Shown here one piece after another: positions 1-61,068 of a DNA stretch of 61,665 bases. The DNA lies in the NCBI GenBank assembly GCA_002633005.1, contig NMRA01000456.1, positions 1 to 61,665 on the forward strand. The letters run 5' to 3'. How positions within the stretch are numbered: the stretch's first letter is position 1; every line of letters begins with the position of its first letter. The position numbers and the translations under genes are program-made. Under the pieces are notes generated by a model, which was not told where the DNA came from, ran no database searches, and was given only the letters and a program-made list of their open reading frames with translations. The stretch comes from Phoronis australis. Taxonomy: Eukaryota; Animalia; Phoronida.

Positions 1-1
1 T

Positions 2-3000
2 ACTCCGAGTTGTTTCATTTCGGAAGAGGAGGGTCATCTAGACAAAATGCTCAAGGCCGGCGTGATTACTCCGTCTATGAGTGAGTGGGCTGCGGCTCCG
101 GTTTTAATCAGAAAGAAAGCCGACGGTGCAGTCCGGTATTGCATCGACTACAGGAAGCTAAATCGGGTAACCAAAAAGGACTCCTGGCCTTTACCATTGA
201 TAGACGAGTGCATTGATTTACTTGCGGGTAATGTGTGGTTTAGCAAATTAGATGCTAATTCGGCATACTGGCAAATCAAAATACGCGAAGAAGACCGTAA
301 GAAAACGGCTTTCATAACTAAATATGGTCTTTTCGAGTTCAAGTCAATGCCTTTTGGGCTCTGTGGGGCTCCCTCAACCTTTTCACGGGCAATGAGTTTA
401 GTTCTGCGAGGGCTAAACTGGCACACAGTTCTTGCTTTTCTCGACGACATTTTGGTATTGGGTTCTAGTTTTGACGTGCATTTAAACAACCTGCGGGAGG
501 TTTTTGATCGTTTTAGGCAATACCAAATGAGATTGAAACCCAAGAAGTGTTCATTGTTTCAAAAACGCGTTGATTTCTTAGGACGATGGGTGGGCCCTGA
601 GGGGTTAGAAATGGGTCAAGATAATATTGACAAGGTAAAAACCTGGCCTGTTCCAAGAAGTAAAAAACAGTGTCAGAGTTTTCTTGGTTTCGCTAATTAT
701 CATCGTCTTTTTATCAAGGATTTTGCTCGCATTGCGGTGCCACTTTACGAAGTCACTGGGTCCTCTCCCTTTGCGTGGGGGGAGAAGCAGCAGTTAGCTT
801 TTGAAGAGCTTAAGGTGGTTTTAACATCGCCACCCGTGCTGTCGTTACCCAATAATTATGATGAATTTATCCTCGATTGTGACGCTTCTGATCTTGCGAT
901 TGGTGCTTGTTTGTCGCAAGTTCAGAAGGGTGAGGAAAAGGTTATCTCGTATTCGAGTTTTGCGTTGGTGGATGAGCAAAAGCGGTATTGCACGACTAGG
1001 AAGGAATTATTGGCTGTGGTCCGTTTTACTCATCAATATCGACATTATTTGCTGGGTCGGAATTTCCGCGTGCGGACGGATCATAACAGCTTAACATGGT
1101 TGTTGAATTTTAAATCTCCAAGTGGTCAGATAGCGCGTTGGATTCTGCAGCTGCAACAATTTCCGGGTATGAAGATAGAGTATCGGCCGGGTATAAAGCA
1201 TATTAATGCAGATGCACTTTCCCGTATTTCGGTAGATATTTGCAGCAACTATAAACTGGAAGTTTCTCCAGAACAGCTTCCCTGCGGGGGTTGAGTAAAA
1301 TGTCAAAAAGCTCATAATGACTGGTATAGTTTTTCACAAGAAGTGGATGATTCAACATCTCTTGGTAGCGTGGTGGTCACAAAAGTAGATAAATGTATTG
1401 GTACAGAGAGACAGGTAATTACGGCTTCTGTGGGAAGTCAAGAGCCGGATTTGTCTCGGTATATACCTGATGATCTAGCAGAGCAGGAATTTGGATTGGC
1501 TGTGGTTAATCCAAATCTTTCGAAGTCGAGTGATAGTGTTTTTGTGGAATCGGAATTTTGCGTTGTCAACAACAACTCGACCAGCTCAAACTCCTGCGGG
1601 TATTTTAATGAAGCTGAGTTGCCAATTAAACAAAAAGCTGATGTGGATTTGACTTTTGTTTTCAACTGGTTAAAGGAACAGGTAGTTCCTACAGAGCACG
1701 AATTATTCCTGTCTAGTCCGTCAGCAAAGTTTTACTGGATAAACAAAGATCGGTTTTATATTCAAGGTGATGTGTTGTTTTGGAAGTGTCCGGAGGATGA
1801 CCGAGGGTTAATGGTAATTCCTACATAATTAAAATCGGAGGTCCTGAAAATGTGTCATATCATACCATCGGCGGCCCATCAGGGTATTTTCCGGACTAAG
1901 TCAAAAATAAGGTTAAAATATTTCTGGTATGGTTTGACGAAAGATGTCAAGCATTTCATAGGTTCCTGTGGGGCCTGCAATCAGAACAAGCAGGGCAGTA
2001 GACGTGGTCGATTTCCGATGATTCGTTATCATGCTGGTGCGCCGATGGAACGGGTTCATGTGGATTTTCTGGGGCCATTACCTGTGACAAACCGCGGTAA
2101 TGAACATGTTTTAATGATCGTTGATCAGTTCACCAAATGGGTCGAGTGCATTCCGTTACCTTCCCAAACGGCTGAGGTCACAGCCCATGCGGCGGTCAAC
2201 GAGTTCTTCACACGGTTCGGATATCCGTTTCATATTTTTTCAGATCAGGGAAGGAATTTCGACAGCAAACTTTTTAAGTCGCTGTGCGACCTCCTGCACA
2301 TAAATAAGTCAAGAACAACTCCATACCGTCCGTCTGCGAATGGACAGGTAGAGCGATTTAATCGCACGCTCATGGACGCGGTGAGATGTTACGTGAGTGA
2401 TTATCAAGACGACTGGGATATGTTTATTCCGCAAATTGCTGGGGCAATTCGCTCATCAGTCAACCGACATACTGGTTTCTCTCCAAATATGATGATGTTG
2501 GGACGAGAAGTAAATCAGCCGATAGATCTTATATTTCCGGTGGTCACGTCAGTTAATAATCAACCATCTGGTGATTATGTCGGGAGACTTCAAGGGGCAA
2601 TAAGCAAGGCTCATGAAACGGCGCGTCAATTTCTTCAAACTAGTCAATCTTTGATGAAACGGGACTATGATCTTTCAGTGTTTAGGCGTGTGTTTCATCT
2701 GGGTGATCTTGTGTATATCTTTGACTCGGCAACCGTGAAAGGAAAATGTAAAAAATTATCTCCTCCGTGGAAGGGGCCGGGCATTATTACGGAAGTCTTA
2801 ACTCCAGCGTTGTACCGGGTAAGAGTTAAGAATTCAGTTTCGGTAGTTCATCATGACAGAATAAAATTATGTACAACGCAGTATACTGAATTGCCTGATT
2901 GGTTAAAAAGAGTCATTTCTGCTGGAAATGTCATCAACACCAATACCGGGAATAGGGATCCGGAACTTTTTTGCATTTGTCGCAAGCCCGATCACGGGGG

Positions 3001-3115
3001 GCTCATGATTCAGTGCGATTCGTGTGATGACTGGCTTCATGGGGAATGTGTTGATATTACCGCTACTGATGCAAGGGAAATTGACACTTATTGGTGTCCT
3101 CGGTGTAAGCCATAA
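2..3115 (+). pseudogene. pol: Gypsy pol (RT, RNase H, integrase, C-terminal PHD finger), interrupted by two in-frame stops
   Basis: ORFs 47-1294, 1343-1828 and 1850-3115 share one frame, open from base 2. Motifs: RT CIDYRKLN, MPFGL, FLDD; RNase H DCDAS, ELLAV, RTDH, NADALSR; IN HHCC (CHIIPSAAH..CGAC), D (HVDF), D (SDQG), E (QVERF), GPY/F-like WKGP. Stops TGA 1292-1294 and TAA 1826-1828. Confidence 0.95.
2969..3112 (+). other. PHD finger (C4HC3) fused to integrase C-terminus
   Basis: FCICRKPDHGGLMIQCDSCDDWLHGECVDITATDAREIDTYWCPRC. Confidence 0.93.
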
Positions 3116-3159
3116 CATCATTATGATGTAATAATTACATAACCATGTTTTCGTTGTAG

Positions 3160-4954
3160 ATGTCCAGTTCGCCTGTTTAGATGTTCGTTTGCGAACGAAC
3201 CCAGACCTTCCAATAGCGACCTTCAACGAAGGTGAGTCAGGGGCTGTTGAGATAGTCCCTATGGATGCAGAGTCAGTAGTGGGTAAGTCAACTGAATGCC
3301 AAGGTGAAGCGGATTGTACAGTTGCGGCTGTAGACGAAACACAGTCATCGATTAAAACGCCAGTTAGTCCTGCGGGAATCTCGGGGTCATCTAGTCAGAG
3401 TTCGGTAAGTTCTGCGGGTCTTCCATCTCCCTCCTTTTCGTGCCCGTTATGTCCTTTTACGGGGTCGGAGGCCGAGTTTCGGGCACACGCCCTATTACAT
3501 CTTCCGAAAATATTCAATATATCATCTATTCACATGCTCGCGTTTCCGGGGTTACAGCGTCGTCGCGCTTGGGCGATTCTTCGCCTGTTTTCTTACATAG
3601 AGGGTAGGGAATTGGTGTCCTACAGCGATTTGATGGATATGGGGGGGTTGATCGTGCGCAGTTTGCCATGTATACCATCTGTGTTGCTGGTGGACGAGGT
3701 TGCGATGTTCTTAATATGCCGTGTGATGGGATGGCCGATACCATCTCGTTTTATCGCACCGGATGGTCGCTTAGAGAATCCAGCATGTGTGTTCCTCTGG
3801 TACATTATTTTGGGGATGATGGCACGCGTGTCGGAGGCCCTTCGCTCTGAGTGGATCCGTTGGTGTGATGAAGAGTCCGCATCTACCGAAATGCAGGAAG
3901 TACCATTTATTCCTTTAGCGGCGCCACTGCATCAGACATCTACTGGGCTAGACGTTGCGTCGACTCCTACGAACGGACCGGTGAATGCACCGTTAACAAC
4001 GGGGCCTGTGACTACATCGTTCACCAGTTTTGCTCAGGTAGTTGCAGAGTGTTCGTCTAGGCCGGGGGGGCACCTACTGCGATTTCAACTCCACGCAAAG
4101 TAAAAGCGAATCCTCAGGCTTTGGACTCGCATTTCCACATTAATAGGTTATCTGTGGCCCATCGTGAGAAAACGGGCGTACGGACAGTGGACAGATGGCT
4201 GTCAGTACCAGAACTCCTGGCGGCGGATATAAGCAGGCAACCGACGGTGCCAGTGACCCTCTGTGGGGGGATCGTTGTTTTTTGCGATGCACATGACATC
4301 CGCATTGACCTGGGTGCCTATTTGAAGCAGCTTCCTGCAGGATGGAAGGCAGTCGTAGGCATCCATCCTAAACAGCTCTCCAAATTGGATTTCCGTGCGC
4401 GGGAAGTTATGTTGGGGTTGCTGTCAGAACCAAAGGTAGCAGGGCTTGGGGAAGTCGGATTGGAACAAGGTAGGGACGAGGTATGGCAGGCGCGTGCATT
4501 AGAAGATTTGATAATTCATTTTTGTCAGCTGGAAAAGAAAGAAACTGAATATCGTAGGAAGGTGTCAAGCATGATGTTCATTATGATTGGGGTTTTGCTA
4601 CACTCCGTGAGATTTTGCGGCGTCATGCTCCGCAGAGTATTCGTATGCACCTACACACCTCTGTTGGAAATACAAATGTCGTGCGCGACTTCTGTGAAGA
4701 ATTTCCTTCGTTATTTTGGCTTTTCAGGTTTGATATGCAGGTACAACCGCTTGCAGGTTGCAGCGTTAGACACGGTTCCTCTGCAGCGGTTGTTGTTGGA
4801 AACCGATTCCCCTCACCTTCCGGTAAATACTAATCCTAATTACCCTCAGTTTATAGGGGAGGTCGCGGAAGTTGTGGCAAAGCTAAGGGGGGTGTCCACT
4901 GAGGTGGTTCTGGACGAGAGCGTTCGTAATGGACGAAGCTTATACCGATTATAG
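3160..4954 (+). pseudogene. Accessory ORF2: C2H2-like zinc finger, unknown domain and TatD-family nuclease (frameshifted copy)
   Basis: CPLCPFTGSEAEFRAHALLH near 3441-3500. TatD motifs DSHFH, VGIHPK, GLGEVGL, MHLH (alternate frame, ~4561-4710), YFGFSG, LLLETDSP. ORFs 3189-4103 and 4121-4954 join if the G7 run at 4064-4070 is G8. Confidence 0.85.
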
Positions 4955-5495
4955 AGGGGCTTGAGGGTGGTATATGAGATATTATAGAAATAGTTTTTTT
5001 TCCCTTTCTGTTTTTTATATATATATATATATTTTTTTTTTGTTTATGCCTCTTTATTTTATATTTAGGGGCATTTCCGTCTCGTCTGTTCGGACTTCTT
5101 GTGGATTATATTAGTTGTTTCTTTTTTGTTTTTTGTTGTTTTTGTGTATTAAGTTCTTACTTGAGAGTAAGGGGATGGGTTTTTGGTGGTTTTTTGTGTT
5201 TTTTCCTTTTCGTTGAGTGCCCTTTTCTTTTTAGAGTCAATAGGTTTTGTTTTTAGTCATTGTTCTTCAGGCCACTATGTTTAGGATAATTTTCTTTTGG
5301 GAGGGACGGTTTAGTTGTAAAGTGCTACTAACGTCACATCAAATGTAATTTTTTTTCTTTTTTTCATTAAGTTATTTTATTTTTTCTTTCTTTCTGCGAA
5401 ACTAATGGATGTTTCTTTTGGTTACATTTGGTACGACTGTTGGTCTTCTAACATTTGTTTGGGGGTATTAGGATTAAGTTAGGCATATTCTTTTT

Positions 5496-5509
5496 AGGAA
5501 GGGGGGGAG
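5496..5509 (+). promoter_or_regulatory. Polypurine tract (plus-strand primer)
   Basis: AGGAAGGGGGGGAG immediately followed by TGTCGTG. Confidence 0.88.
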
Positions 5510-6156
5510 TGTCGTGAACGTGTATTCTCTCGTTGTGTGGCGTCATGTGGTGTTGTCTTTGTTCGTCTCTGTGTGTGTGTGGTGTTGACATAGTGAGCCA
5601 GTGATAGGTCACGTGACTCTGGGCACGAGGGGGAATCGGGGAGTCTATGAAAGGGTGTGGACCTAGATAGACGTTCTGGAGAGTGTAACTAGAAGCGCTC
5701 TTACAAGTGTGACACTGATGGCAAGCCCGGACAAGAAGTTGGGTAAGTTGGCTGTCTCTGAGGAATTATAGGCCGCGTTACTATAACATCAACCTCGAGG
5801 GTCTGTGCAGGAGACTAGAGACTAGTTATTGGGAAATCCGAAATCCCATTGGACGACCCGCAGTAGCGAACATTGTTTCCAGGCATTGGTCGTTTCATGA
5901 ACCGTAGCGACACTTAGCGGGCGTGTGCTCCGAAGAAAATAAACATGGTCGGTGGACTTGTGACTGGTTTCCCGCTGTGCGTTATCATAAGATTGCTCCG
6001 GTTTATTAACGTATGAAGACTGCTGTACTATACCGTGCGTTGTGTGCTATGTTTACTGTCATGGAACAATGCAGATGAACAGATGACGCTATCTGTCTAT
6101 CACTCTAACCCCGGCGTACCCAGGACCAAGGTCAAGGAGTGAATATTACTCTGACA
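5510..6156 (+). repeat. 3' LTR of the Gypsy element
   Basis: Starts TGTC after the PPT and ends GACA at 6156 (4-bp inverted termini); AATAAA at 5938-5943. Right end not confirmable without the 5' LTR. Confidence 0.72.
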
Positions 6157-6490
6157 TCTATGCTTTCTATGTTGTGAACTAGTATAAAAGCTTATTATGT
6201 CCTTGGACCTAAAATCTTGGCTCCCTGGATATTATGGTTCTTAACTTTTAGTGCTGTTGAGTGAATATCTTCCCATAATGTGTTTCATGCTTTGACAAAT
6301 CAGTTGTGTTCTTTCAATAGCCTACTCGGTGATTGTCAGTGAATTATCCTAGTGGCATGACCTCTGACTTGGATCCGTGGCTGATTTGATCTGCTTGCTT
6401 CTTCATACTTCAAGTCGTTATTATGCCTGGACATAACTGCACTATACTTGTTTTGTGCCTGCATCTCTGATCGTTTGTGATTGGACCCTA

Positions 6491-6853
6491 CACGGGTGAG
6501 AAACAACATGACCGCGGTCCTCTTAAATCGGACCGCCTCACCCAAAACAGGACCTCCGGGGATCAAATGGGATCGTGGCGCCAGGACTGACGCACCTAAA
6601 AACATGACCGCCCCACCACAAAACAGGACCGCCGGGGACTGAACATCATATGATGACCGCCGGGGATTGAAACCGCATATTGTCCGGCGGTCATCATATG
6701 ATGTTCAGTCCTGTTTTGTGGTGGGGCGGTCATGTTTTTAGGTGCATCAGTCCCATTTTCTGGTGCGACGGTCCCATTTGATCCCCGGAGGTCCTGTTTT
6801 GGGTGAGTCAGTGTGATTTAGAGGACCGGCGGTCATGTTGTTTCTCACCCGTG
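6491..6853. mobile_element. Foldback MITE (CAC...GTG termini, possibly EnSpm/CACTA-type)
   Basis: CACGGGTGAGAAACAACATGACCG ... CGGTCATGTTGTTTCTCACCCGTG; ~170-bp arms nearly self-complementary; repeated GACCGCCGGGGA sub-motif. Confidence 0.85.
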
Positions 6854-21500: not shown

Positions 21501-24500
21501 AGCAGGGGAAATAATTGTACCGGTTGCCCAGAAGACGGAAATAGTACTGTTTCACACCAGGACTTGACCCAAGTATTTGACAGAGCACATGTCCCAGTTT
21601 ATCATACCTCTACACCCACTTATATCACAGAACACATGTCCCAGTTCATCATACCTCTACACTCACCTATATCACAGAGTCATGCAACAGTTCATCATAC
21701 CTCAATACCCACCTATACCACAGAGCACATGTCCCAGTTCATCATACCTCTACACCCACCTATATCACAGAGCACATGCAAAAGTTCATCATACCTCTAC
21801 ATCTACGTATACTACAGAACATAACCAACAGTTCATCATACCTCAAAACCCAGCTTCTTCCAATACTTCTGGTTCTGTTGGTTCTGTCTTTTCTGTGGTT
21901 GGTCCTCTTGCTCACTGTCAAACGCTACCTTCCTCAGTTCAAAGAGAACTTTCACTGCAGTCTACAGAAAGAAATTGTCAATGGCCAGTTACAAAAGAAG
22001 CTCTTTTTTGATACATTGAATTTATAATTTATTATCAGCAGAGCTGAAGGTGTATTGGAGACAACAATTAGGTTACATGTCAGAACATGACAGATGAAGT
22101 CCAACAGCATTTTAAACATTATGTTTCAAAATTTTCAGTAATTTATTGTTCTACCACAAGAACGTCCTGCCAGAAATACAGCACAACTGACCTGGTCCTG
22201 TGAACTATATCGGGTCAACATTCTCTCTTCTAGCAGTCCAAACAACAAGGTTTGCAGTGCGTACAGTTGATGAGCCATCTCAGAGCCAACGGATGAACTC
22301 ACGATGTTCTACAAGGCCAATTGTCAATCATAACTAAAAGGCTATCTGAGAATCGTACCCATAACTTTGTGTACATAATATACAAGGGTGTAAACTTCAA
22401 ATAAAACAGTGAAAAGCAGAAATAATGTGCACGCAGATGACATTAAACATATCATCGTGTCAAATGCAAGAATACCAAAAAGCACATCATAACAGTATAC
22501 ATATCATAGATTGTGTCTTTTGCCAGAATATGGAAAAGCAGACAACACTATACATATTATGACTCGTCTGTCTTCTGCAACAGGGAAAAGCAGATGATAT
22601 TACAAATATTGTATGGCAGATAACAATGGCAAGGCAAAAAACATCAAAGCACATCATAGATTGTGTCTCATTTTTTAAGTGCTCATGTCACTTTTACATT
22701 TACCGCATATGCATGGATTTAGGTGCGTGTGCTTTCATGAGAAGTACAGATTCCATGTATGTGCTTATATGAGAAGCACCGAATTACATGCGTGTGCTAA
22801 CATGAAAAGCACGAAATTGCTTGTAAGTGCATATGAGAAGCACAGAATTATGTACATGTGCTTATATGAAAAGCATGAAATTATGCGTGATATGTGCTTA
22901 TATGAGAAGCATTCAATTACATGCATGTGCTAATATGAAAATCACAGAATTAGGTTTATGTGCTTATTTGAGAACCACTGAATTAGGTGTACGGGGAGCA
23001 TATGTTAAAATGTGAACACTTGAGCAACAAACCTAGGACCAAGCATTACAAAATGGTAGACTACATGTTGACAAGTAATGATTCAACACTAACTATTTAA
23101 CTGCACAAGAAATGGTAAGACACACAAAAATATACCTTAATATACAAGGGCCAAACGCCCGAGTCTAGAAGTTAAACATAGGCGTATGTGCCTAATGTAT
23201 GAACCACTAAGTAAGAATGTTTGGAAAAAATGCTCTATTTTGGACGTAGGCACAAGTGTGTATAGTAAGTAAGTGCATGTATATGGCAACAATGTTTGTT
23301 AAGGTTTCAGACTTTAGGCAAATATCCTGTCTTCACAGTCCAAAAATATGAGTGACAAATGGGTCATTAATACCAGCCACAACAGGGAGCAGGAACATTA
23401 GAGAACACTTAACCGCACAACAGGTACTTACTTGCAGGATGATGTTACGGACAGATTTTGTCTGCAGCCTATCAGCAATGACCTGAAAGATTGAAATGAA
23501 AGCAAATTTGACATTGGAGGCAATCAAGACAAAGTTTTAAAACCAATGTATAAGCCATGCACATGGTTGTATTAAGTCAATATCTCGCAGCATTCAGTTA
23601 TCCAAACTTTTTCGAATTGTGACAATTTTTAAACTCTACATTTTGTAACACTTTTCTTCTACTTTTCAAGTGCAAGCAAGATTAGTTGTTCAAATCTTTT
23701 CCCAACATTAACTGTGCAATTTAATTATAAATTCATGTACTTGCCTTCTTTTGTTCAAGACTCGCTTTCATGAACATCGCATTGATCAGGGCAACAGCAC
23801 ACTTCTGTATCTCTGGATTTGGTCTGCAATTTCCAAAGTCAGGCATGAAAAAAGTTACGGCACCAAGATAGCAGACATTGTCGCCTATATGACATAAAGA
23901 CTGTTTTTATTATGTTACCCTTCAACAGTGCCTTTAGGCAGCGCACTCCCACAATCCTTTGTGTTTTCAAGTACTTATTTAGTGGAAATAATTGCATTCA
24001 ACAGTGAAAATGCAGATTGAAACAGAGTTAAAAACGCTTAATTAACTCAGAGCATATCTTGGCAATAGTCATATATAACCTGCCCACATTTTGAGAACCA
24101 GTTTGATGTCCATAACTCAATTGAGCAAACAGGTTCTCAAAATGCGGGCCTGTTATATCCGACTACCACCCCCATGTCTTTGAATGATAATTGTTAAGCG
24201 ATATGAAGGTCCAACATCTCTAAGATTAACGCTCACAGGGGTAAAATTCTCGGCTTGGAAACAATGTGACTGATACTCCAGCATATACAAGATCAACACC
24301 TAATGTAACAAAACACCATTCATATCAAATGGGCTCACATAAACTGAACTTGATCAATACCTATTGTTTGTTGGTTCATCTTCTAAAAAAATTCATAGAT
24401 TTTCATTGTAAAGACGGGATACTAAATTAAAAAAAATGTGCTTCTAATTTTACAGTTTACACAAAATTATGCAAAGCAAAAATGCCATTTTTCATACAAA

Positions 24501-27500
24501 ATAGCAACATTATTTACCAACAAGAGCAATGCAGAGTGTTGAAATGCTCCCACGAATGCACCGCAAATGGTGTGCTTCCAGGGGTGTTTATTTCTATCAT
24601 AAAAATGACCACTAGATGGCGCAAAATAGATCAAATCCATCCAAAAACAGGAATATGCCATCACTTTTCAAATAGAAAGCTACTTATAAAATTTTATAAA
24701 AATCCATACAGGAACTTCAAAGACACAAAGGTAAATGTAAAAAACTAAAATTGACACTAAGGGACACACCGCTAGCCAGATCCGTCTGAAAGTCGCCGTC
24801 GTCCGTTGTCAACTCCATATAAATATACTAGCTAAATTTAGTAAAGATCCTGCAGAGTGTTTAGAAGATACAGCCATGGGTGCAAAAACAAGCAAAACTG
24901 CCACTAGTAGGCGCCACAGTAGTCGAAGTCATCAGAAAATCATCGTCAGCCGTCCTCTTCAAAGAAAGAAAATAAATGCCAATTTTTATAATCATCCTTA
25001 GAGTGGTTCGGCTGATAGATGGTGGACGCCAAAAAACGGACTCAAAAACAGCAAACATTGCCACTAGGTGGCGCAAAATACCTAGAATCAGTCCGGAAAT
25101 GGGAGGATCTCACTAATAGATGCCTATAGGTCAAATTTCATGAAAATCTGTCGAGGGCCTTTGAAGATACAGAGGTAAATGTAAAAATGTAACATTGCCA
25201 CTAGAGGCACACCGGTAGTTGGATCCATCCGTTGGATCCATCCGTTGGATCCATGCTCACGCCATCCCATTCATGAAGGAAACACGTGTTCAAAATTTCG
25301 TGATTATACAAAAGATTTTGGATATAGAGCAGCGGACATCAGACGCCGGACAGATGGGCCTACAGATATGATGGCATAATGCGTCCATATAATAATGTGG
25401 GAGCACACAAATGACACGAGCACATGTCAATTGGATTGTACAACTTACACCTCAAGTGAGAAGATTAACATTATCAGCCAGTCACAAAAACTGCAGATAC
25501 AAGGTCTCTGGTATTTACTTAGTATACAAAGGAGCACGGTCACATTACATGGACCATGAAATGAGATTGTCCGCAACACAACAATATAATTCATCAAATT
25601 GATTTTCGTCCATTTTTAAAGGCTGAGTAAATATTAATAAAATGTTAATTTATTATGCATTTGTTTCACCATAACTGCACAATACAAACAAGGCTGACGA
25701 TGGAGACGATGCTTATTTTTATTCAGAAACTGGACAAAATAAGATTGTCCAGCAAATTATGCGCTATGAAAACTGTTGGTCAGAGTGCATGACTCACACG
25801 GTCAGGTGCTGCACAAGACTGTCAGGTGACACTTCCTGTTCTACCAGAGTCTTGGTTGAACTTTGCAGTACAATCGACTCGAGGATCTCCAATGACGACT
25901 GGAGAGCTATAGGATCGATATCAGCCAATTTCTTTTTGTTGTTTATCACATAGCTGGACACCTACAAGAAACGAGTCAAATTTATCTTTAAACCAGGGCA
26001 ATGTCCTTGTAAAAGACTCAGGGGTTCAATTTGTACTTGCTGGCTTCCCTCGCCTTCTTAAATGCACAGTTTATTTAAAAAACTATCAGTCTAATATGGC
26101 GGTGAACAAGCACATGGAATGCAAAGCATGCCGTTAAATTACAACTTTAAAGCAATCTCATCGGTGACAATTCTCTTCAAGTATATCTTTAATTAAATTC
26201 CATTAACAAAGTTCTTGTTCAAGGAAAATGTGGACATTTACTGATGAAAAATTCTATGGCACCAGTGGACACATGTCTACTTTCAGACTCAACCAGCAAA
26301 GTTAAGTTAACTTTCCATGATTTCAGACTCATTTGGGCTTTAAATGGAGTGAGTTGGTGCAAGACAAATCTTAAGTGTTGTCTGCTCTTATTCCAATGAT
26401 CTTGTGTGATACCTACTGTTTTGATAAACTGGGACTCCAGTACATCCCACGACACTATCCCATGATCCATCAGCTCAACAAATGCCTTGAGTAGATATGC
26501 AAGAGACTCGCCAGAACTGCAAGTAGAGAGCCACACATTAAAAGTGTATTAAATATCGCAAAAATGAAAACAAGTAGGCACAAATCTCACACAGAAGCCT
26601 GGTCATCTCCAATGTCTTGTGACTGAGAGAATGGTAGCGTTGGACCTGGTTAACACATAGGTACTGAACACACTGAACGCACAATTAATCACCACCACTA
26701 ACTATTAAGACTGCATAAGCCAAGATATATATTAAGTTGTTCTTTAATGAATATCCGGAGTTATTGAATGCACCCACATAATCCTATGTTTAAGATCTCG
26801 AAGATTGAGACGTTAAAACAGAGTAATATTGATGACTGCCATCCAAGCGATGAGAATATCTAAATATACAAATTGCAAGGCGGTTCTTGTCTTTCTGTTG
26901 CTCTATTGCAACGACTGTGTAAAACGGTACCTACTAATACAACAGGTGGCACTATCAGTCACCAGCCCCATGTGATCAGCAAACGGTACCCACCTCAACC
27001 AAGAGCTTTGCCGCTAATGTGTGGGCTTCAAACAATGACGTCACGTGGTGCTTTACCGATCACTGGATTACTGTATCTTTTAATACTAAGCCACAATCTC
27101 AAGAATGTTATAAGGGATCACTTTTTGTTTGGATGATAGAACAATGAAAACAAAATGTCAGAATCTTCAGACTTTCTTGATGATGCTAAACTGCGACCAA
27201 TGCAACAGCTAAATTAGTGTTGATACAGTGTGCATTTTTGATTACCCGTAATATGCCAGGTGTCATTCGCATTAAATCCCTGTCCTATGGCATTAACTTA
27301 CTCATGATATATGCTTCAAACAAATTGGTAAACAGTTCCGCTTCTAACACTGACATCATTTTTGATTGTGTGGTAAAAAGAATAAAATTTCTGTACTACC
27401 ATCCAAGTTAACTACAAATCTGCTTTGAAAAAAAACATGCCATGACCAAACCCTACAGAACTACACTGAAGAAAATGTGTGAAATCCAAGTTAAGTTTGG

Positions 27501-30500
27501 GATTGGTGTCTGTAACGAATCATCATCAGCATAATCACATTCACAAGCAAGGCCTCTGTGTTTGTAGTTTACCTTTGCAACAACTACTCACGTCTCTGTC
27601 TAATATATACAAGCATCACAACCTGCCAGCAGTAAAGTGCTTGGTCGAGTGTGTACCTTTTGCAAGTGATCAGTAGAAACGACATAGTGCAATTCTCCCA
27701 TTTGAAACATGAGAATAAAGAAAGTAACAATACTCCAATGTACAGAAATTGAGGTTTCTCTTATGCACGTCAATACATTGTGTTAAGTTTGTCAAAAATG
27801 TAATATGCCGCATCACAAAAGAATTGACAGCTGTATTAAATGACAGCTAACAAGTGTCAATTGTAAGGAAACCCCAAACATTTTCCTACGAATGGGCACT
27901 GCCTAATATTGTTTGCTTGTCGATTCATTCCGTCAGTAAGTATACTCACTACTTGTTTGTCTCCACCATGGAAATCAACATATTCATGCCGCTCTTGTTA
28001 ATGAACTCTGTAGCAAATGTTATGTCAGACGAGAACTTGGACAACTGTTTGAAGGCGGCTGCTTTTTCCTGCAGTGTACCTGTGCTCAGTTGTTGGATGA
28101 TAGTGTCGACAGTTTTAAGCTGAAATAGAAGTGTATAAATAAGTCAAATAAGTTGGAAGCAAATCGAGTGCATATAAAGAAGTTCAACAACCCACAACTT
28201 GAAACAAAGAAAGAAACTCAGAGAGACTGACAAGCCAACAAATTCCACACACGAGTTCCATTTATAGTACAGATATTGTGGAAAATTAGAGAACTGATCT
28301 GGCCTTGAATGCTTCCCCCTACCCCCCCCCCCCTGAGACAATATTGATACAAAATATCATTTGCTCTTCAAACACATGAAAACTACAAAATGGTTGCGAT
28401 AATGGTTGTTCGCTTAAGTTGTACACCCATTATGAGACTCCTATGTCAAAAAATAGAGTAATGCAAAGCGTTGCTATATGTCCACTGGGTGCACCGCATG
28501 CAGTACAGATACAAGAAATAACTGTATATTTTAAACATTCTCACTAGAGGGAGCACTACCAGTAAACTTAATATAGCCTCCAAGGGGAGCAAAGCAAGTT
28601 CACCAAAAACTTAACTCCATGAACATTGATAAATTAATTTGGTAGATACCACGGNNNNNNNNNNNNNNNNNNNNNNNNNNNNNNNNNNNNNNNNNNNNNN
28701 NNNNNNNNNNNNNNNNNNNNNNNNNNNNNNNNNNNNNNNNNNNNNNNNNNNNNNNNNNNNNNNNNNNNNNNNNNNNNNNNNNNNNNNNNNNNNNNNNNNN
28801 NNNNNNNNNNNNNNNNNNNNNNNNNNNNNNNNNNNNNNNNNNNNNNNNNNNNNNNNNNNNNNNNNNNNNNNNNNNNNNNNNNNNNNNNNNNNNNNNNNNN
28901 NNNNNNNNNNNNNNNNNNNNNNNNNNNNNNNNNNNNNNNNNNNNNNNNNNNNNNNNNNNNNNNNNNNNNNNNNNNNNNNNNNNNNNNNNNNNNNNNNNNN
29001 NNNNNNNNNNNNNNNNNNNNNNNNNNNNNNNNNNNNNNNNNNNNNNNNNNNNNNNNNNNNNNNNNNNNNNNNNNNNNNNNNNNNNNNNNNNNNNNNNNNN
29101 NNNNNNNNNNNNNNNNNNNNNNNNNNNNNNNNNNNNNNNNNNNNNNNNNNNNNNNNNNNNNNNNNNNNNNNNNNNNNNNNNNNNNNNNNNNNNNNNNNNN
29201 NNNNNNNNNNNNNNNNNNNNNNNNNNNNNNNNNNNNNNNNNNNNNNNNNNNNNNNNNNNNNNNNNNNNNNNNNNNNNNNNNNNNNNNNNNNNNNNNNNNN
29301 NNNNNNNNNNNNNNNNNNNNNNNNNNNNNNNNNNNNNNNNNNNNNNNNNNNNNNNNNNNNNNNNNNNNNNNNNNNNNNNNNNNNNNNNNNNNNNNNNNNN
29401 NNNNNNNNNNNNNNNNNNNNNNNNNNNNNNNNNNNNNNNNNNNNNNNNNNNNNNNNNNNNNNNNNNNNNNNNNNNNNNNNNNNNNNNNNNNNNNNNNNNN
29501 NNNNNNNNNNNNNNNNNNNNNNNNNNNNNNNNNNNNNNNNNNNNNNNNNNNNNNNTAAAAATGGCCACTAGGTGGCGCAAACTATGTCGAATCCATCCGA
29601 AAACGGCAGGATAGCGTCATCTCACTACTAGGTGCCTACATACCAAATTTCATGAAAATCCGTTCAGGACTTTTGAAGATACAAAGGTAAGCGTAAAAAA
29701 CTAAAATTGCCACTAGGGGGCACACCGGTAGTCGGATCCGTCCGAAAGTTCGCACATGCCGTCCCATTCATGAATGGAACATATGTGCCAAATTTCATGA
29801 ACGTATGTCAAAGGGTTTTGGAGATAGAGCAGCGGACGCCGGACGCCGGACGCCGGACGGACGCCGCCCGGACGGACGGACGGACGGACGGACGGACGGA
29901 CAGAGATGACGGCATAATGCGTCCACATATAAATATGTGGGCGCATAAAAACATTAAAGCATACCATAGATTGTGTCTCATTTTTTAAGTGCTCATGTCA
30001 CTTTTACATTTACTGTATATGCATGGATTTAGGTGCGTGTGCTTTTATGAGAAGTACAAATTTCATGTATGTGCTTATATGAGACGCACCGAATTACATG
30101 CATGTGCTAATATGAAAATCACAAAATTGCTTGCAAGTGCATATGAGAAGCACGGAATTATGTACAAGTGCTTACATGAAAAGCATGAAATTATGTGTAT
30201 GTGCTTATATGAGAAGCACGGAATTACATGCATGTGCTAATATGAAAATCACATAATTAGGTCTATGTGCTTATTTGAGAACCACTGAATTAGGTGTACG
30301 GGGAGCATATGTTAAAACGTGAACACTTGAGCAACAAACCTAGGACCAAGCATTACAAAATGGTAGACTACATGTTGACAAGTAATGACTCAACACTAAC
30401 TAGTATTTAAATGCACAAAAAATGGTAAGACACACAAAAATATACCTTACTATACAAGGGCCAGACGCCTGAGTCTAGAAGTTAAACATAGGCGTATGTG

Positions 30501-33500
30501 CCTATGTATGAGCCACTAAGTAAAAATGTTTGGAAAAAAACGCTCTATTTTGGACGTAGGCACAAGTGTGTATAGTAAGTAAGTGCATGTATATGGCAAC
30601 AATGTTCATTAAGTTTTCAGACTTTAGGCAAATATCCTGTCTTCACAGTCCAAAAATATGAGTTACAAATGGGTCATTAATACCAGCCACAACAGGGAGC
30701 AGGAACATTAGAGAACACTTAACCGCACAACAGGCACTTACTTGCAGGATGATGTTACGGACAGATTTTGTCTGCAGCCTATCAGCAATGACCTGAAAGA
30801 TTGAAATGAAAGCAAATTTGAAATTGGAGGCACTTACGACAAAGTTTTAAAACCAGTGTATAAGTATGGTTGTATTAATTCAATATCTCACAGCATTCAG
30901 TTATCCAAACTTTTTTTCGAATTGTGACAGTTTTTAAACTCTATATTTTATAACACTTTTCTTCCACTTTTCAAGTGCAAGCAAAATTAGTTGTTCAAAT
31001 CTTTTCCCAACATTTACTATGCAATTTAATTATAAATTCATGTACTTGCCTTCTTTTGTTCAAGACTCGCTTTCATGAACATCGCATTGATCAGGGCAAC
31101 AGCACACTTCTGTATCTCTGGATTTGGTCTGCAATTTCCAATGTCAGGCATGAAAAAAGTTACGGCACCAAGATAGCAGACATTGTCGCCTATATGACAT
31201 AAAGACTGTTTTTATTATGTTACCATTATCCTTCACAAGTGCCTTTAGGCAGCGCACTCCCACAATCCTTTGTGTTTTCAAGTACTTATTTAGTGGAAAT
31301 AATTGCATTCAACAGTGAAAATGCAGATTGAAACAGAGTTAAAAACGCTTAAATAACTCAGAGCATATCTTGGCAATAGTCATATATAACCTGCCCACAT
31401 TTTGAGAACCAGTTTGATGTCCATAACTCAGTTGAGCAAACAGGTTCTCAAAATGCGGGCCTGTTATATCCGACTATCACCCCCATGTCTTTGAATGATA
31501 ATTGTTAAGCGATCTGAAGGTCTAACACCTCTAAGATTAACGCTCACAGGGGTAACATTCTCGGCTTGGAAACAATGTGACTGATAGTCCAGCATATACA
31601 AGATCACCACCTAATGTAACAAAACACCATTCATATCAAATGTGCTCACATAAACTGAACTTGGTCAATACCTATTGTTTGTTGGTTCATCTTCTAAAAA
31701 AATTCATAGATTTTCATTTGTAAAGACGGGATACTAAATTCAAAAAAAATGTGCTTCTAATTATACAGTTTACACAACATTATGCAAAGCAAAAATGCCA
31801 TTTTTCATACAAAATAGAAACATTATTTACCAACAAGAGCAATGCAGAGCGTTGAAATGCCCCCACGAATGCACCGCAAATGGTGTGCTTCTAGGGGTGT
31901 TTATTTCTATCATAAAAATGACCACTAGATGGCGCAAAATAGATCAAATCCATCCAAAAACAGGAACATGCCATTACTTTTCAAATAGAAAGCTACTTAT
32001 AAAATTTTATAAAAATCCATTAAGGAACTTCAAAGACACAAAGGTAAATGTAAAAAACTAAAATTGACACTAAGGGACACACCGCTAGCCAGATCCGTCT
32101 GAAAGTCGCCGTCGTCCGTTGTCAACTCCATATAAATATACTAGCTAAATTTAGTAAAGATCCTGCTGAGTGTTTAGGAGATACAGCCATGGGCGCAAAA
32201 ACAAACAAAACTGCCACTAGTAGGCGCCACAGTAGTCGAAGTCATCAGAAAATCATCGTCAGCCGTCCTCTTCAAAGAAAGAAAATAAATGCCAGTTTTT
32301 ATAATCATCCTTAGAGTGGTTCGGCTGATAGATGGTGGACGCCAAAAAACGGACTCAAAAACATTGCCACTAGGTGGCGCAAAATACCTAGAATCCGTCC
32401 GGAAATGGGAGGATCTCACTAATAGATGCCTATAGGTCAAATTTTATGAAAATCTGTCAAGGGCCTTTGAAGATACAGAGGTAAATGTAAAAATGTAACA
32501 TTGCCACTAGGGGCACACCGGTAGTTGGATCCATTCGTTGGATCCATGCTCACGCCATCCCATTCATGAAGGAAACACGTGTTCAAAATTTCGTGATTAT
32601 ACAAAAGATTTTGGATATAGAGCAGCGGACATCAGACGCCGGACAGATGGGCCTACAGATATGATGGCATAATGCGTCCACCTATTATGTGGGCGCATAC
32701 AAGTGACACAAGCACATGTCAATTGGATTGTACAACTTACACCTCAAGTGAGAAGGTTAATATTCTCAGCCAGTCATAAAAAGCAGATACAAGGTCTCTG
32801 GTATTTACTTAGTATACAAAGGAGCACGGTCACATTACATGGACCATGAAATGAGATTGTCCGCAACACAACAATGTAATTCATCAAATTGATTTTCTTC
32901 CATTTTTAAAGGCTGTCAAGTAAATATTAATAAAATGTTAATTTATTATGCATTTGTTTCACCATAACTGCACAATACAAACAAAACTGACGATGGAGAC
33001 GATGCTTATTTTTATTCAGAAACTGGACAAAATAAGATTGTCCAGCAAATTATGTGCTATGAAAACTGTTGGTCAGCGTGCATGACTCACACGGTCAGGT
33101 GCTGCACAAGGCTGTCAGGTGACACTTCCTGTTCTACCAGAGTCTTGGTTGAACTTTGCAGTACAATCGACTCGAGGATCTCCAATGACGACTGGAGAGC
33201 TATGGGATCGATATCAGCCAATTTCTTTTTGTTGTTAATCACATAGCTGGACACCTGCAAGAAACGAGTCAAATTTATCTTTAAACCAGGGCAATGTCCT
33301 TGTAAAAGAGGCAGGGGTTCCATTTGTACTTGCTGGCTTGCTTCGCCTTTTTAAATGCACAGTTTATTTAAAAAACTATCAGTCTAATATGGCGGTGAAC
33401 AAGCACATGGAATCCAAAGCATGCCAATAAATTACAACTTTAAAGCAGTCTCATCTGTGACGATTCTCTTCAAGTTCTCTTCAAAGTTCTTGTTCAAGGA

Positions 33501-36500
33501 AAATGTGGACATTTACCGATGAAAAATTCTATGGCACCAGTGGACACACGTCTACTTTCAGATTCAACCAGCAAAAAAAGTTAAGTTAACTTTCCATGAT
33601 TTCAGACTCATTTGGGCTTTAAATGGAGTGAGTTGGTGCAAGACAAATCTTAAGTGTCGTCTGCTCCTATTCCAATGATCTCGTGTGATACCTACTGTTT
33701 TGATAAACTGGGACTCCAGTACATCCCACGACACTATCCCATGATCCATCAGCTCAACAAATGCCTTGAGTAGATATGCAAGAGACTCGCCAGAACTGCA
33801 AGTAAAGAGCCACACATTAAAAATGTAAAAAATATCGCAAAAATGAAAACCAGTAGGCACAAATCTTGTACAGTAGCCTGGTCATCTCCAATGTCTTGTG
33901 AGTGAGAGAATAGTATTGTTGGATCTTGTTAATACATAGGTATGGAACGCACTAAATGCACAAACTATCACCACCCTTTATTAAGACTGCATAAGCCAAG
34001 ATATATACAAATTTGTTTATTTTTAGTGAATGTCCGAAGTTACTGAATGCACCCACATAATCCTATGTTTAAGACCAAGCGACGAGAATATTTAAATATA
34101 CAAATTGCAAGACAGTTCTTGTCCTTCTGTTGCTCTATTGCAATGACTGTGAAAACGGTACCTACTAATACAACAGGTGGCACTATCAGTCACCAGTCCC
34201 ATGTGATCAGCAAACGGTACCCACCTCAACCAAGAGCTTTGCCGCTAATGTGTGGGCTTCACACAATGACATCACGTGGTGCTTTACCGCTCACTGGATT
34301 ATTGTATTTTTTAATACTAAGCCACAATCTCAAGGATGTTAAAAGTGATCACTTTTTGTTTGGAGGATAGAACAATGAAAACAAAATGTCAGAATCTTCA
34401 GACTTTCTTGATGATGCTAAACTGCGACCAATGCAACAGCTTAATTAATGTTGATATAGTGCGTATTTTTGAACACCGGTAATATGTCAGGTGTTATTCG
34501 CATTAAATCCCTGTGCTATGGCATTAACTTACTCATAATATATGCTTCAAACAAATTGGTAAACATTTCCGCTTCTAACACTGACATCATTTTTGATTGT
34601 GTGGTAAAAAGAATAAATTTCTGTACTACCATCCAAGTTAACTACAAATCTGTTTAGAAAAAAAAACATGCCATGACCAAACCCTACAGAACTACACTGA
34701 AGAAAATGTGTGAAATCCAAGTTAAGTTTGGGATCGGTGTCTGTAACGAATCATCATCAGCATAATCACATTCACAAGCAAGGCCTCTGTGTTTGTAGTT
34801 TACCTTTGCAACAACTACTCACGTCTCTGTCTAATATATACCACCTGCCAGCAGTAAAGTGCTTGGTCGAGTGGGTACCTTTTGCAATTGATCAGTAGAC
34901 ACGACATAGTGCAATTCTCCCCATTTAAAACATGAGAATAAAGAAAGTAACAATACTCCAACGTACAGAAATTGAGGTTTCTCTTATGCACGTCAATACA
35001 TTGTGTTAAGTTTGTCAAAAATGTAATGTGCCGCATCACAAAAGAATTGACAGCTGTATTAAATGACAGCTAACAAGTGTCAATTGTAAGGAAACCGCTT
35101 CACCTTGTGTCCTATACTCCACTGCGTTGATGAACTGTTTTGGGCAAATTAATGATAAACATTTTCCTACGAATGGGCACTGCCTAATATTGTTTGCTTG
35201 TCGATTCATTCCGTCAGTAAGTATACTCACTACTTGTTTGTCTCCACCATGGAAATCAACATATTCATGCCGCTCTTGTTAATGAACTCAGTAGCAAATG
35301 TTATGTCAGACGAGAACTTGGACAACTGTTTGAAGGCGGCTGCTTTTTCCTGCAATGTACCTGTGCTCAGTTGTTGGATGATAGTGTCGACAGTTTTAAG
35401 CTGAAATAGAAGTGTATAAATAAGTCAAATAAGTCGGAAGCAAATCGAGTGCATATAAAGAAGTTCAACAACCCACAACTTAAAACAAAGAAACTCAGAG
35501 AGACTGACAAGCCAACAAATTCCACATATGAGTTCCATTTATAGTACAGATATTGTGGCAAATTAGAGAACTGATCTGGCCTTCCGCAAACCTTGNACTT
35601 CAAACACATGAAAACTACAAAATGGTTGCGATAACGGTTGTTCGCTTAAGTTGTACACCCATTATGAGACTCCTATGTCAAAAAATAGAGTAATGCAAAG
35701 CGTTGCTATATGTCCACTGGGTGCACCGCATGTAGTACAGATACAAGCAATAACTGTATATTTTAAACATTCTCACTAGAGGGAGCACTACCAGTAAACT
35801 TAATATAGACTCCAAGGGGAGCAAAGCAAGTTCACCAAAAACTTAACTCCATGAACATTGATAAATTAATTTGGTAGATACCACGGTTAAAGTAAAAACG
35901 TGCAATTGCCACTATAAACTGCGGCACTATTGGCATTTGTCCGAAAATTAAGGGGTGACACCTTATCTGCAGGTGTTTAATTTCACAAGAAGCCCTCAAG
36001 GGATGTGTCATAGATGTTTGGATGCTACTGGGGGTATTGGCAAGTTTCACATGGTTTATAGAACGAGAGTTCTAGTGCGGACAAACTTAAAGAAGTGCCA
36101 GTCAATCCATAATTTGGACAATCGTATATTTCAAATTTTATGAAGATCCTTCACGGACTCGGTAAACATTGAAGTCAAAATGCAAAGAAAACTAAAATTC
36201 TCACATTTGGCAATGCCACATTGGCCATATCCATCCCATAACTGATGCCAGCTGTGCATTCTTCAATAGGAACAAGTAGCCAAATTTCATGAACAACCAT
36301 CAAGGGACTTAATAGATGCTGGGGCAAGTTCAAAAAACAAAATTGCCACTTTGGGTCCCATAGAAGTCAGATCTATCCAAAAATCAATGGCAGCAATGTA
36401 CATCTCGATAGGATCATATCTGTTAAATTTCACATATCATCAAAGAATTTGGCAGGTAATGGGGCAGATGTCTGCATATCAAAAGCAACCATGCTTTCCT

Positions 36501-53500: not shown

Positions 53501-56500
53501 ATTAAAAGTTAACGAATAAATGTAACATTGTGGATTGAACACACGAGAGTTTAAAGAACACAAAATCACGGGAAGGAGTTAACAGTCCAGCATAATAGAC
53601 ATGAACCAGACTAACTGGATGAGTGGACGCAGACTCTCAGAATTCAGTAACGTAGACAAGTTTAAAAATGATTAAGAAGTTTTCGAATTTTGATAAATCT
53701 CGATAACTTTTATGCCCGATCCTGGTTCAGGTACAAATCAGTGATCCCTGGCGTTCGGAAATAACACGGCGATGCAGATAGTGTGTAAAATACCAAAGAC
53801 CTACTAAGTCCTAATCGAGAAGCCCAATTGTCCAAAAGTTAACAGGACTGGCTTCGAACGTTCGAAAAATATCAAAATGTTACTTTTAACATAAAATATT
53901 TCCATCGGTTTTGAGCTTGACTATTTAGGAGGTTTGCCATTTTGAACCGTTACATCATTGATGCCTGTTTGCAAAATCCACGTTACCGCAAACGAGACTG
54001 GCTTTAGGGCCGCGATAACACGTGTCGATGTTGACAACAGATATTTTTTATTTGACAAACGATATCTATTCAAAGAAAGAAAATCAGGTGACACTCATTA
54101 AGGACATTCCTTTCAGGGCAGATAGGCATGGGTCCCTCATACATCGTACTGCATTAGGAGAAGGCCTGATATCACTTCTACTTAACGTTTATGCTTAAAG
54201 AGTAAAATCTCACCTCTTACTTATCTCAGATGAGGAAGGCGTTGAAACACCAGCAATTCTATCATCCCTGCTTTCGTCAAGATCTACCAGAGCTGAAGAT
54301 GAGCGCGTAGTGCTGGCCATCCCGTTCTCATGCGTAGACGTAGTGACGTCTGATGGAAGACATTATTAAAATTTCCTGAACATGAATTGACGTGGCAAGT
54401 TAACAACGTCTTTTTTGGTCTTAGGCACTTATTTTTATGATTACGTTTTCGCATAACCATTCGGTAAGGCAATTGCCAGCAGAAAAATTGTTAACCTACG
54501 TGGCATGTACTCGTTTCTCTAAGAAGTGACGGCAAAAATAGACTCGCAAATAACAAAAAATGGTGACGCATAATACGTCTAATCCGTTCGAAAATAGAAA
54601 AGGTGTTGTCGTTTACTCAATAGGAACTTTTTGTATAAAATTCATGAAATTCTGTTACAGAACTCCCAAGATAGAGAGGTAAACGTAAAAATGCCAATAG
54701 GAGACACAGCGGTAGTAAGATCTGCCAGAGTGTCGTCGTCATTTGTTGAGTCACGTTCATAGAAAAGGACTTGCTCAAATTTCACAAAGATCCTGTAAGG
54801 GGATAAAAAGATACAGCTGCTGACGCACAAACAAAATTCCCACTAGGAGGCACCAAAGTAGCCATACCAATCCAAAAATCAACATCAGTACTTGGTCTTC
54901 TCAGCAGGTACAGCGGCCGACGCCAAATGAAAATGGTGGCGCAGAATACACCAAGTACGTCCAAAAACGAAGGCACATCGTCATTTCCACAACAGGGACC
55001 TATTTGTCAAATTTCGTGAAAATCTATCAAGCAAAGTAAGCCGGATATAGAGGCAAACGTTAACGTAAAAAACAAGTAATAACATTGTCATCAGAGGACA
55101 CAGCGGAAGTCCGATCAGTCCGAAACTCGTCGTCTGTCGTCGGCGCCATACCAAAGATTTGGCCATACACACATCTGCCAAATCTCATTCTGCAGGTGGT
55201 TTATGAGATACAGCAGAGGATGCCGGAAGGACGTAACTACGCCCGCCAGACACCCAGACAGAGATGACGACCTGAATATGCAACTACACATCCGTCAACG
55301 AACGGGTGGGATGAGCCAACCGATTTCGGTGCACTGAGAAAGCGCAACCACCCAGTAGGCTCTCTTGCAGACTGAGTCCGCGTTCTTAGACACCCATCAC
55401 CGTATATTTCATAAACACGAGAAGTGATTGCGAAAGACTAAACTATGTACCGGGATTTCCCGTAAGCCCAACCCAATGAAACGCCCAATGGTCGTTTATT
55501 CAGAAAATTATGCGAAGCGTTAAGTATGCGTGGCGTTAATTATGATAACACAGTTTTAAGTAAAATATGTTAAAGTCGACAAAACTAAGACTCCGTTTAA
55601 AATCCCCTGAAAGAGCCAATTGGTGACGCTGATGACGGAGAGAGAGACGTCCTGAAATTGACTGGTAGTAACAAACTAGGAGAAGTTGACGATATTCTAC
55701 AGGAAGTTATCCAACCGTCAGATATCGCTGGGTTCGCTGATGCGGCTGATGGTATCGAGAAAGTCCTGAAATCCAAAAGTAAAAGCGTTGTAGGTCACCA
55801 TTTTAAAGGCGCCACCAAATCGACCGAGTCTACAGTTTCGGAGGAAGTTTACCACATTTCCACAGACAAAGATGAATTGGTGAAGAAGAATGTCCATAAA
55901 AAGACGGATTTACAAGAGTTGCAGGCAAGTCAAATCCCTTCTAGTACACCCGAGGAAAAAAGTTGTATCGAAGTACGAAATATTGAGGAAATTCCTGCTG
56001 ACGCCAAACCTTCTGATATACATGGGTTGCCTTACGGTGCAACTTTTTTCTCTGTTGAAACCATCCACCGTAGCTCTGCATGTATGATAGATACTGGAGG
56101 GAGAGAAGTCGATAATCTGGAAAGTAGAAACAAGCCAGGCGAAGTCACTCGCTTGTCAAGTATTGCTCAGTTCGCTGATAATGATGATAGTGAGGGAAAA
56201 GTCATGAAATCCGAAAGTAAATCCGTTGGAAGTGGCCACTTACACGACATCACACTGTCTGATTTGACTGAGCCCACAGTTTCCTGTGCGATTGGGGAAA
56301 CTCTTAAACAGGACACATGACGCTCCGCATCTGAGACTGTCTTCAACAAATCAGGCAGCGTCGAAGGTATCAGCCCAGAAGATGCAAATCTGCAAAGCTT
56401 CGCCAAGTTGTCCCTAGATGCAATTTCTTTTCATACTGCAAATCTTTTAGAGTACACGTTTATAGCTGAAGCTTACCAGAAGGACAAAATAAAATTTCAC

Positions 56501-61047: not shown

Positions 61048-61065
61048 TGGTAGCAGAGCAAGGTT
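61048..61065 (+). promoter_or_regulatory. Primer binding site for initiator tRNA-Met
   Basis: TGGTAGCAGAGCAAGGTT, complementary to the 3' end of an invertebrate-type tRNA-iMet. Confidence 0.9.
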
Positions 61066-61068
61066 GAA

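Follow-up and report, generated by a model that had tools for sequence, protein, structure and literature searches.

The element and its third gene

We analyzed a stretch of 61,665 nucleotides from Phoronis australis (assembly GCA_002633005.1, contig NMRA01000456.1, positions 1–61,665 of the forward strand), referred to below as the window. Positions 1–6156 are the 3’ (right-hand) part of a decayed copy of a Ty3/Gypsy long terminal repeat (LTR) retrotransposon, in which a third gene (ORF3) carrying a TatD nuclease domain stands in the position of env. From left to right this part holds reverse transcriptase (RT) and RNase H, an integrase with a PHD finger, ORF3, a polypurine tract and the 3’ LTR (Table 1). 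Gag, protease and the 5’ LTR are situated left of the window, and no second copy of the LTR was found within it. The arrangement of RT-RNase H followed by integrase within pol, as recognized by Pfam, is the Ty3/Gypsy gene order, and the best PDB match of the RT is the Ty3 RT (E 1.6e-76), with caulimovirus (1.7e-47) and retroviral RTs behind it. Pol contains two in-frame stops (1292–1294 and 1826–1828); otherwise RT and integrase share one frame.

ORF3 is broken by three frame shifts, near 4061–4103, near 4544–4567 and near 4709. When intact natural relatives were aligned to the DNA by tblastn, they matched 3423–3860 in one frame, 4118–4951 in a second and 4561–4746 in a third, and we therefore regard ORF3 as one gene with frame shifts. 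Sibling DNA contigs, representing other loci or alleles, have insertions or deletions at the same three places, and their net lengths fit one continuous frame. An earlier reading of the sequence (the first-pass annotation) had described an open reading frame of about 590 codons with a C2H2-like finger and a TatD nuclease. Its content was recovered, but the single open frame was not: about 598 codons are spread over three frames. The Pfam profile TatD_DNase (PF01026), which that annotation had proposed to run on the frameshift-corrected protein, matches 4061–4951 with E 6.1e-20 and 72 bits against a curated cut-off of 27. All the motifs quoted there (DSHFH, GEVGL, MHLH, ETDSP) were found in the sequence, and five of the six metal ligands of TatD enzymes are readable in this copy. 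The LHxR motif, previously called scrambled, is indeed missing; it falls at the second frame shift (4544–4567), where this copy is shorter than the sibling contigs. The domain upstream of TatD, a C2H2 zinc-finger motif with a helical bundle, matched no family in Pfam, NCBIfam or Atlas (best score in the last 0.86, a lead only).

The PHD finger at the C-terminus of the integrase, likewise predicted in the first pass, has as its best PDB match CXXC1 (9.4e-14), followed by PHF2, BPTF, Spp1, PHF8 and DIDO1, and keeps the aromatic, Met and Trp positions of these solved relatives. PHD fingers of this class are readers of H3K4me3. The Pfam scan detected no chromodomain family, so that the element is not a chromovirus, and the likeness to these elements lies in a histone-reader fold at the end of the integrase: chromovirus integrases of the Ty3/gypsy group have been described with a chromodomain at this place (PMC3601003), whereas here the place is taken by a PHD finger whose nearest matches are H3K4me3 readers. 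On the model of those integrases, the PHD finger likely tethers integration, in this case to active chromatin.

Both edges of the 3’ LTR are supported, because foreign flanks of RNA reads from three runs stop at 5510 (5, 8 and 9 reads) and contigs from four DNA runs, all of one sample, come together again in the final 21 bases of the LTR, up to 6156. The polypurine tract and LTR had been placed at 5496 and 5510 before, and both are present there. An assembly chimera was excluded by overlapping DNA contigs that follow one another from pol to the 3’ untranslated region (UTR); one runs from 1035 to 3308, from pol into ORF3, and another from 4835 to 5464, from TatD into the 3’ UTR. Over 5426–5859 LTR reads run in both directions, in two of the RNA runs (X6 and X7) mostly opposite to the ORF3 reads, and the DNA depth is several-fold above that of the internal part. 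Many solo or related LTRs likely account for this depth and for the bidirectional reads.

Table 1. Features of the retrotransposon copy at the left end of the window
Feature	Position	Strand	Basis
pol: RT and RNase H, truncated by the left edge of the window	2..1291	+	Pfam RVT_1 E 4.6e-32, RT_RNaseH 5.6e-32
pol: linker between RNase H and integrase	1295..1828	+	no Pfam family
pol: integrase (H2C2, rve core, SH3-like C-terminal part) to the pol stop	1829..3115	+	Pfam Integrase_H2C2 6.4e-15, rve 3.8e-13, weaker SH3_Tf2-1
PHD finger at the integrase C-terminus, CXXC1/PHF2/BPTF/Spp1 type	2972..3106	+	Pfam PHD 1.5e-10
Splice acceptor: pyrimidine run, AG at 3158–3159, exon starts at 3160	3145..3159	+	RNA joint
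ORF3 in the place of env; its roughly 598 codons lie in three frames	3160..4954	+	open frames, tblastn of intact relatives
Second splice donor GTGAGT, ends a 72-base exon (3160–3231)	3232..3237	+	reads leaving, X6 and X7
C2H2 zinc-finger motif and helical bundle (family-specific upstream domain)	3423..3860	+	tblastn; no Pfam family
TatD domain, group II (HxH)	4118..4951	+	Pfam TatD_DNase; PDB YcfH 5.2e-09
Polypurine tract	5496..5509	+	sequence; adjoins the LTR
3’ LTR, TG...CA; TATA-like site at 5646, AATAAA at 5938	5510..6156	+	sequence, read flanks, DNA joints
ATG at 5718, 8-codon leader and donor GTAAGT (5743–5748), inside the LTR	5718..5748	+	sequence and RNA joint

Spliced transcripts of ORF3

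In order to assess how ORF3 is expressed we used RNA reads mapped on 1–6500. X8, X6 and X7 are RNA runs, while X5 is only guessed to be RNA. A splice joint from 5741/5742 back to 3159/3160 was found in X8, where the three reads have 2 different starts and the shorter arm measures 58 bases, and in a contig of X5; the listed joints of four DNA runs do not include it. Of the three ATGs that precede the donor in the LTR, the one at 5718 alone is open, and it has the same phase (1) as 3160 in ORF3. By three reads and one contig, ORF3 appears to be expressed from spliced RNA in the manner of env. The simplest reading is that the ORF3 message is an env-like subgenomic RNA that starts from the 5’ LTR outside the window and carries the 8-codon leader; the same leader sequence in the 5’ LTR likely starts the message, and the joint would then come from that LTR. 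Reads of X8 in the sense direction cover 3039–4340 at a depth of 1–3, and none run that way on pol; these are small numbers from a run whose strandedness is not on record.

Several points weigh against this reading. The joint is seen in 3 reads from 2 starts and in one contig. Back-splicing from the 3’ LTR, which would yield a circular RNA, gives an identical joint. Reads on the TatD part are few and come from X6 and X7 only, and in these two runs forms that skip the nuclease outnumber those that keep it: 40 reads (X6) and 23 reads (X7) exit at 3232 to sequence outside 1–6500, and two further reads join the 3232 donor to 5498, with the first AG of the polypurine tract (5496–5497) as acceptor. 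This splicing of the 72-base exon may reflect a transcript fused to host sequence or a regulated way to bypass the nuclease. For the same exon we observed 10 and 5 molecules ending at 3162 in X6 and X7.

The splice from the element’s own LTR and the contigs spanning pol to the 3’ UTR rule out a neighboring host TATDN gene. Together with the existence of a family of one architecture, they uphold the previous claim that TatD is cargo of the element. The gene had also been called intronless, which holds for the gene body, free of host-type introns, but not for the message with its spliced LTR leader. Env messages of insect errantiviruses have been reported to be spliced to a short upstream peptide (10.1101/2023.08.03.551782), and the element shares with gypsy, ZAM and Beagle, as described in that source, a third ORF after pol that is read from a subgenomic RNA joined to such a peptide. 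It differs from them in that leader and donor lie inside the LTR and in that ORF3 has no signal peptide, membrane anchor or fusogen. An env glycoprotein was therefore rejected: ORF3 has a TatD domain instead, and among 62 long relatives one has a segment reaching a hydropathy of 2.0, while no membrane segment was found in the other 61.

The TatD family, its origin and the rest of the contig

A HMMER search over 1.84 billion representatives of 50%-identity clusters gave 161 matches at E≤1e-10. Under the looser limit of E≤0.001 there were 1571, and ordinary TatDs are probably among the weaker of these. With this copy as query, word-index searches returned no longer relative and one of similar length. 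The top 150 matches mostly consist of a C-terminal TatD domain behind a long N-terminal part. A profile of the upstream domain was found in 57 of the 61 top matches whose part before TatD is 200 residues or longer, against none of 3892 control ORFs, and its Cys, Cys, His and His are 81–88% conserved. In the structure model of one relative (P0003) this domain has a zinc-finger-like start and a helical bundle (pLDDT about 95), joined to TatD by a disordered linker. In fold searches with such models the matches went to the TatD domain. The N-terminal tails are long, basic and of low complexity. Basic patterns resembling a nuclear localization signal (NLS) occur in 24 of 44 tails, compared to a mean of 14.4 after shuffling and no value as high in 200 shuffles.

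All six metal ligands are kept in 106 of the 114 full-length top matches that span them, at a median pairwise identity of 35% among 52 sampled TatD domains. A His before an invariant Pro is kept in 140 of 143 and likely corresponds to His77 of TATDN1, described as positioning the phosphate (PMC10085689). Of the 118 relatives scanned, 116 match PF01026. The models of P0004 and P0003, both natural relatives, are closest to TatD structures, which occupy the top 16 of the listed Foldseek rows and the top 9 VIA rows, and superpose on TatD/YcfH with Z 29.8 and a root-mean-square deviation of 2.5 over 246 aligned positions. The motif [FYN][CS][DE]P was present in 121 of the top 150 matches, compared to none of 173 prokaryotic or viral TatDs. 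We further built a tree by a quick method. The family is represented in it by 53 of its 115 full-length domains and the prokaryotic or viral TatDs by 33 of 132, most of them random picks. The 53 family rows, this copy included, lie on one side of a branch with 97% support; on the other side are one rotifer protein and all 33 sequences of the prokaryotic or viral sample.

Some members deviate from the common layout. P0040, P0162, P0060 and P0021 bear an RRM, a weak CCHC knuckle, extra C2H2 fingers or a sulfatase, the last of which, in a Pinctada gene model, is probably a merged annotation. Two proteins (P0012 and P0023), which NCBI assigns to short contigs of a Sedimenticola metagenome-assembled genome, cluster with this animal element; judging from this position they are likely host DNA in the bin. 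Three Lytechinus proteins annotated as TATDN2 (P0103, P0161 and P0178) lie deep within the family and lack the upstream domain. In these Gln replaces one metal His, they are about 90% identical between two species and have one listed locus each; possibly they represent a domesticated gene.

We looked up 21 proteins; the family members among them that bear an animal name come from Dreissena, Mya, Pinctada and Lytechinus. The Dreissena cluster comprises 47 members of at least 90% identity, among them one sequence of 866 amino acids that recurs on 5 contigs, along with several fragments. In Mya the 13 loci of the cluster are spread over about 10 chromosome-sized contigs. Loci of Mya arenaria and Dreissena polymorpha in these clusters include XP_052761473.1 and XP_052213422.1. 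Seven members of the Mya cluster, each of 824 amino acids, are about 98% identical. Such young, dispersed and partly broken copies are what an active element would leave behind, and the relatives are likely borne by similar Gypsy elements. A figure of the giant squid Hox cluster draws a “TATDN2” among transposon-like genes (PMC6962438), which may be a mobile copy as well.

To judge from these sequences, TatD is conserved cargo of the element and not a one-off capture, because the family is large and of one architecture, the metal sites are intact and near-identical copies are dispersed. The first pass had named a one-off capture as what would speak against it, and the family argues otherwise. 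We consider it very probable that this element lineage carries the gene as selected cargo.

The following observations count against selection or against the linkage of the relatives to Gypsy elements. Among 19 listed differences to the sibling contigs the TatD part has 5, 9 and 5 at codon positions 1, 2 and 3, compared to 5, 7 and 17 among 29 listed in pol; the TatD pattern gives no sign of selection over the short range and would fit decay of this copy. No RT, integrase or PHD was found in the same gene model in any of 118 relatives scanned, as expected for a separate ORF. The relatives, seen as proteins apart from their flanking DNA, probably lie in Gypsy elements too, and these may likewise pair PHD with TatD. 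Scans of other sequence collections yielded no second element either. A metagenome scan with this copy, made to find such a context, yielded none from 97 candidates. Three scans with an alignment (A1) gave 80, 14 and 80 loci of 22–45% identity, none of which matched the RT, integrase or upstream domain; these 174 loci were used solely as an outgroup. When viral contigs were scanned, P0105, the integrase and a motif pattern gave no match, and a plasmid scan returned bacterial TatD only.

The HxH motif, which defines group II TatDs (YcfH, TATDN2 and TATDN3; PMC10085689), places the family in this group. With YcfH, YjjV, TATDN2 and TATDN3 as described (PMC10085689, PMC10711561) it shares the fold, HxH and the six metal ligands; it differs in being element-borne and multicopy, in forming its own clade and in having the [FYN][CS][DE]P motif and the extra upstream domain. 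In its long N-terminal tails, with their NLS-like patterns, the family is similar to TATDN2, for which a long N-terminal extension and NLS-like patterns have been reported (PMC10085689, PMC10711561). In the tree, built without a vertebrate or mollusc TATDN2, two sea-urchin proteins that bear the TATDN2 label are placed within the family and one rotifer protein falls outside. A Cys-Asp-Pro motif similar to that of the family is present in vertebrate TATDN2. Capture from a host TATDN2 is likely. A less likely alternative is a bacterial source for the TatD domain. The family profile matches YcfH at 1.1e-41 versus human TATDN3 at 8e-17 and TATDN1 at 2e-16, in a comparison to solved structures that had no TATDN2 among the matches.

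Elsewhere on the contig a long nested inverted repeat resembling a miniature inverted-repeat transposable element (94-base and 46-base arms) lies directly right of the LTR (6491–6853). A stretch repeated in tandem every 7.3 kb or so, at 93–99% identity, extends over 22637–35886 with an N gap at 28655–29555; it may be an assembly duplicate. A dispersed family of short repeats (D1, D16 and D20) with up to 14 copies occurs within 9543–54869. Open frames of 204, 239 and 272 codons at 61054–61665 and 55601–57136 had no Pfam match above cut-off; the last of these along the window runs off its end and resembles the start of another retroelement gag.

Possible roles of the ORF3 nuclease

TatD enzymes have been described as 3’-5’ exonucleases on single strands and as apurinic/apyrimidinic (AP) endonucleases that act on RNA also (PMC10085689), and human TATDN2 has been found to degrade the RNA strand of R-loops (PMC10711561). 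By analogy, we tentatively favor, at somewhat less than an even chance, that the ORF3 protein is an accessory nuclease clearing RNA:DNA hybrids and loose ends that stem from the element. The grounds for this preference are that the intact protein is soluble, separate from Gag-Pol and likely nuclear, with an intact metal site, together with the activities of TatD and TATDN2. The third gene’s message would be spliced from the LTR leader like an env message, and the intact protein, made apart from Gag-Pol and keeping its two-metal site, would act 3’-5’ on RNA:DNA hybrids and loose single-stranded ends. These would arise from the element’s own transcription, reverse transcription and integration, and the integrase PHD finger, by reading H3K4me3, would tether insertion to active chromatin, where such hybrids may be common. 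Catalytic activity, nuclear location, substrate and the reading of H3K4me3 are all things that we infer, and it tells against this explanation that the transfer of TATDN2 activity to the ORF3 protein is one of analogy. Trimming of cDNA inside the particle appears less likely given the separate message and the NLS-like tails.

A somewhat unlikely alternative is a counter-defence nuclease that degrades small RNAs or their precursors, or stray cDNA and hybrids that trigger silencing or innate sensing. The separate message and the soluble protein would suit it, as would the fast divergence around a fixed active site and the reported action of TatD on RNA as well as single-stranded DNA (PMC10085689). 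Unrelated 3’-5’ exonucleases occupy the same slot in rotifer elements, for which a link to silencing has been raised (PMC5408684). Its chemistry would overlap with that of the hybrid-clearing nuclease, the difference being one of target and purpose.

We regard it as unlikely that the protein is packaged and repairs cDNA in the particle, proofreading or mending abasic sites and blocked 3’ ends before integration like the dUTPases of retroelements. The AP-endonuclease activity and the 3’-exonuclease activity reported for TatD enzymes (PMC10085689) would serve this purpose, and Gag or nucleic acid could be the binding partner of the conserved C2H2/helical domain. However, a protein outside Gag-Pol needs a separate signal for packaging, cutting the element’s own abasic cDNA would require a ligase, and long basic tails of low complexity suit a nuclear protein.

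It is quite improbable that the family consists mostly of host TATDN-like genes or cargo of other elements, with only this lineage residing in a Gypsy element. No relative was seen in its genomic context, and two sea-urchin members annotated as TATDN2, with one listed locus each, lack the upstream domain. This idea does not agree with the dispersed, 98–100% identical copies on many chromosomes, with the many fragments, or with more than 100 clusters below 50% identity that share one layout. A neutral passenger, that is, a captured host message without benefit, would explain that this copy is broken and that its sibling differences lack a third-position bias, but it is largely refuted by the dedicated in-frame LTR splice and by the retention of all six ligands in 106 of 114 proteins that share about 35% identity, and we hold it to be highly improbable.

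The closest counterparts we found in the literature are Juno and Vesta, LTR retrotransposons of bdelloid rotifers, whose ORF3 is reported to encode a DEDDy exonuclease or a GDSL esterase (PMC5408684). According to the same source these ORF3s typically have spliced messages, and the exonuclease has intact catalytic residues and a role that was untested there. Common to both systems is an enzymatic, non-envelope ORF3 after pol, one type of which is a 3’-5’ exonuclease. Here, in contrast, the nuclease is a TatD TIM barrel and not DEDDy, it is fused to the C2H2/helical domain, the integrase ends in a PHD finger, and relatives occur in bivalves and sea urchins. The rotifer paper does not mention TatD (PMC5408684). 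Literature on TatD or TATDN2 with retroelements and on Gypsy with PHD contained no description of this architecture (Repbase, Dfam, GyDB, subscription journals and supplements were outside its scope; such databases and supplements may contain it already). The main text of a survey of mollusc LTR elements (PMC6238403) has no occurrence of TatD or PHD, and the main text of a 2026 preprint on captured methyltransferases does not mention TatD. In the literature found, published nuclease ORF3s are confined to the rotifer elements, so that the TatD ORF3 is a second, unrelated nuclease fold.

Taken jointly, the parts could describe an old, undescribed Gypsy clade in molluscs and echinoderms whose H3K4me3-reading integrase targets active chromatin rich in R-loops and whose TATDN2-like nuclease, activated by the LTR splice, strips hybrid RNA and thereby keeps the element transcribed and unseen. 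Such a clade would also be the source of many invertebrate “TATDN2/YcfH-like” genes and of a domesticated gene in sea urchins. As a whole we consider this reading rather doubtful.

The family adds a folded zinc domain without a family name, and the intact natural proteins of Mya and Dreissena make the question of the nuclease testable. TatD gene counts in invertebrate genomes would be inflated by mobile copies. The conservation of TatD over more than 100 divergent clusters suggests that LTR elements repeatedly benefit from a 3’-5’ nuclease of their own.

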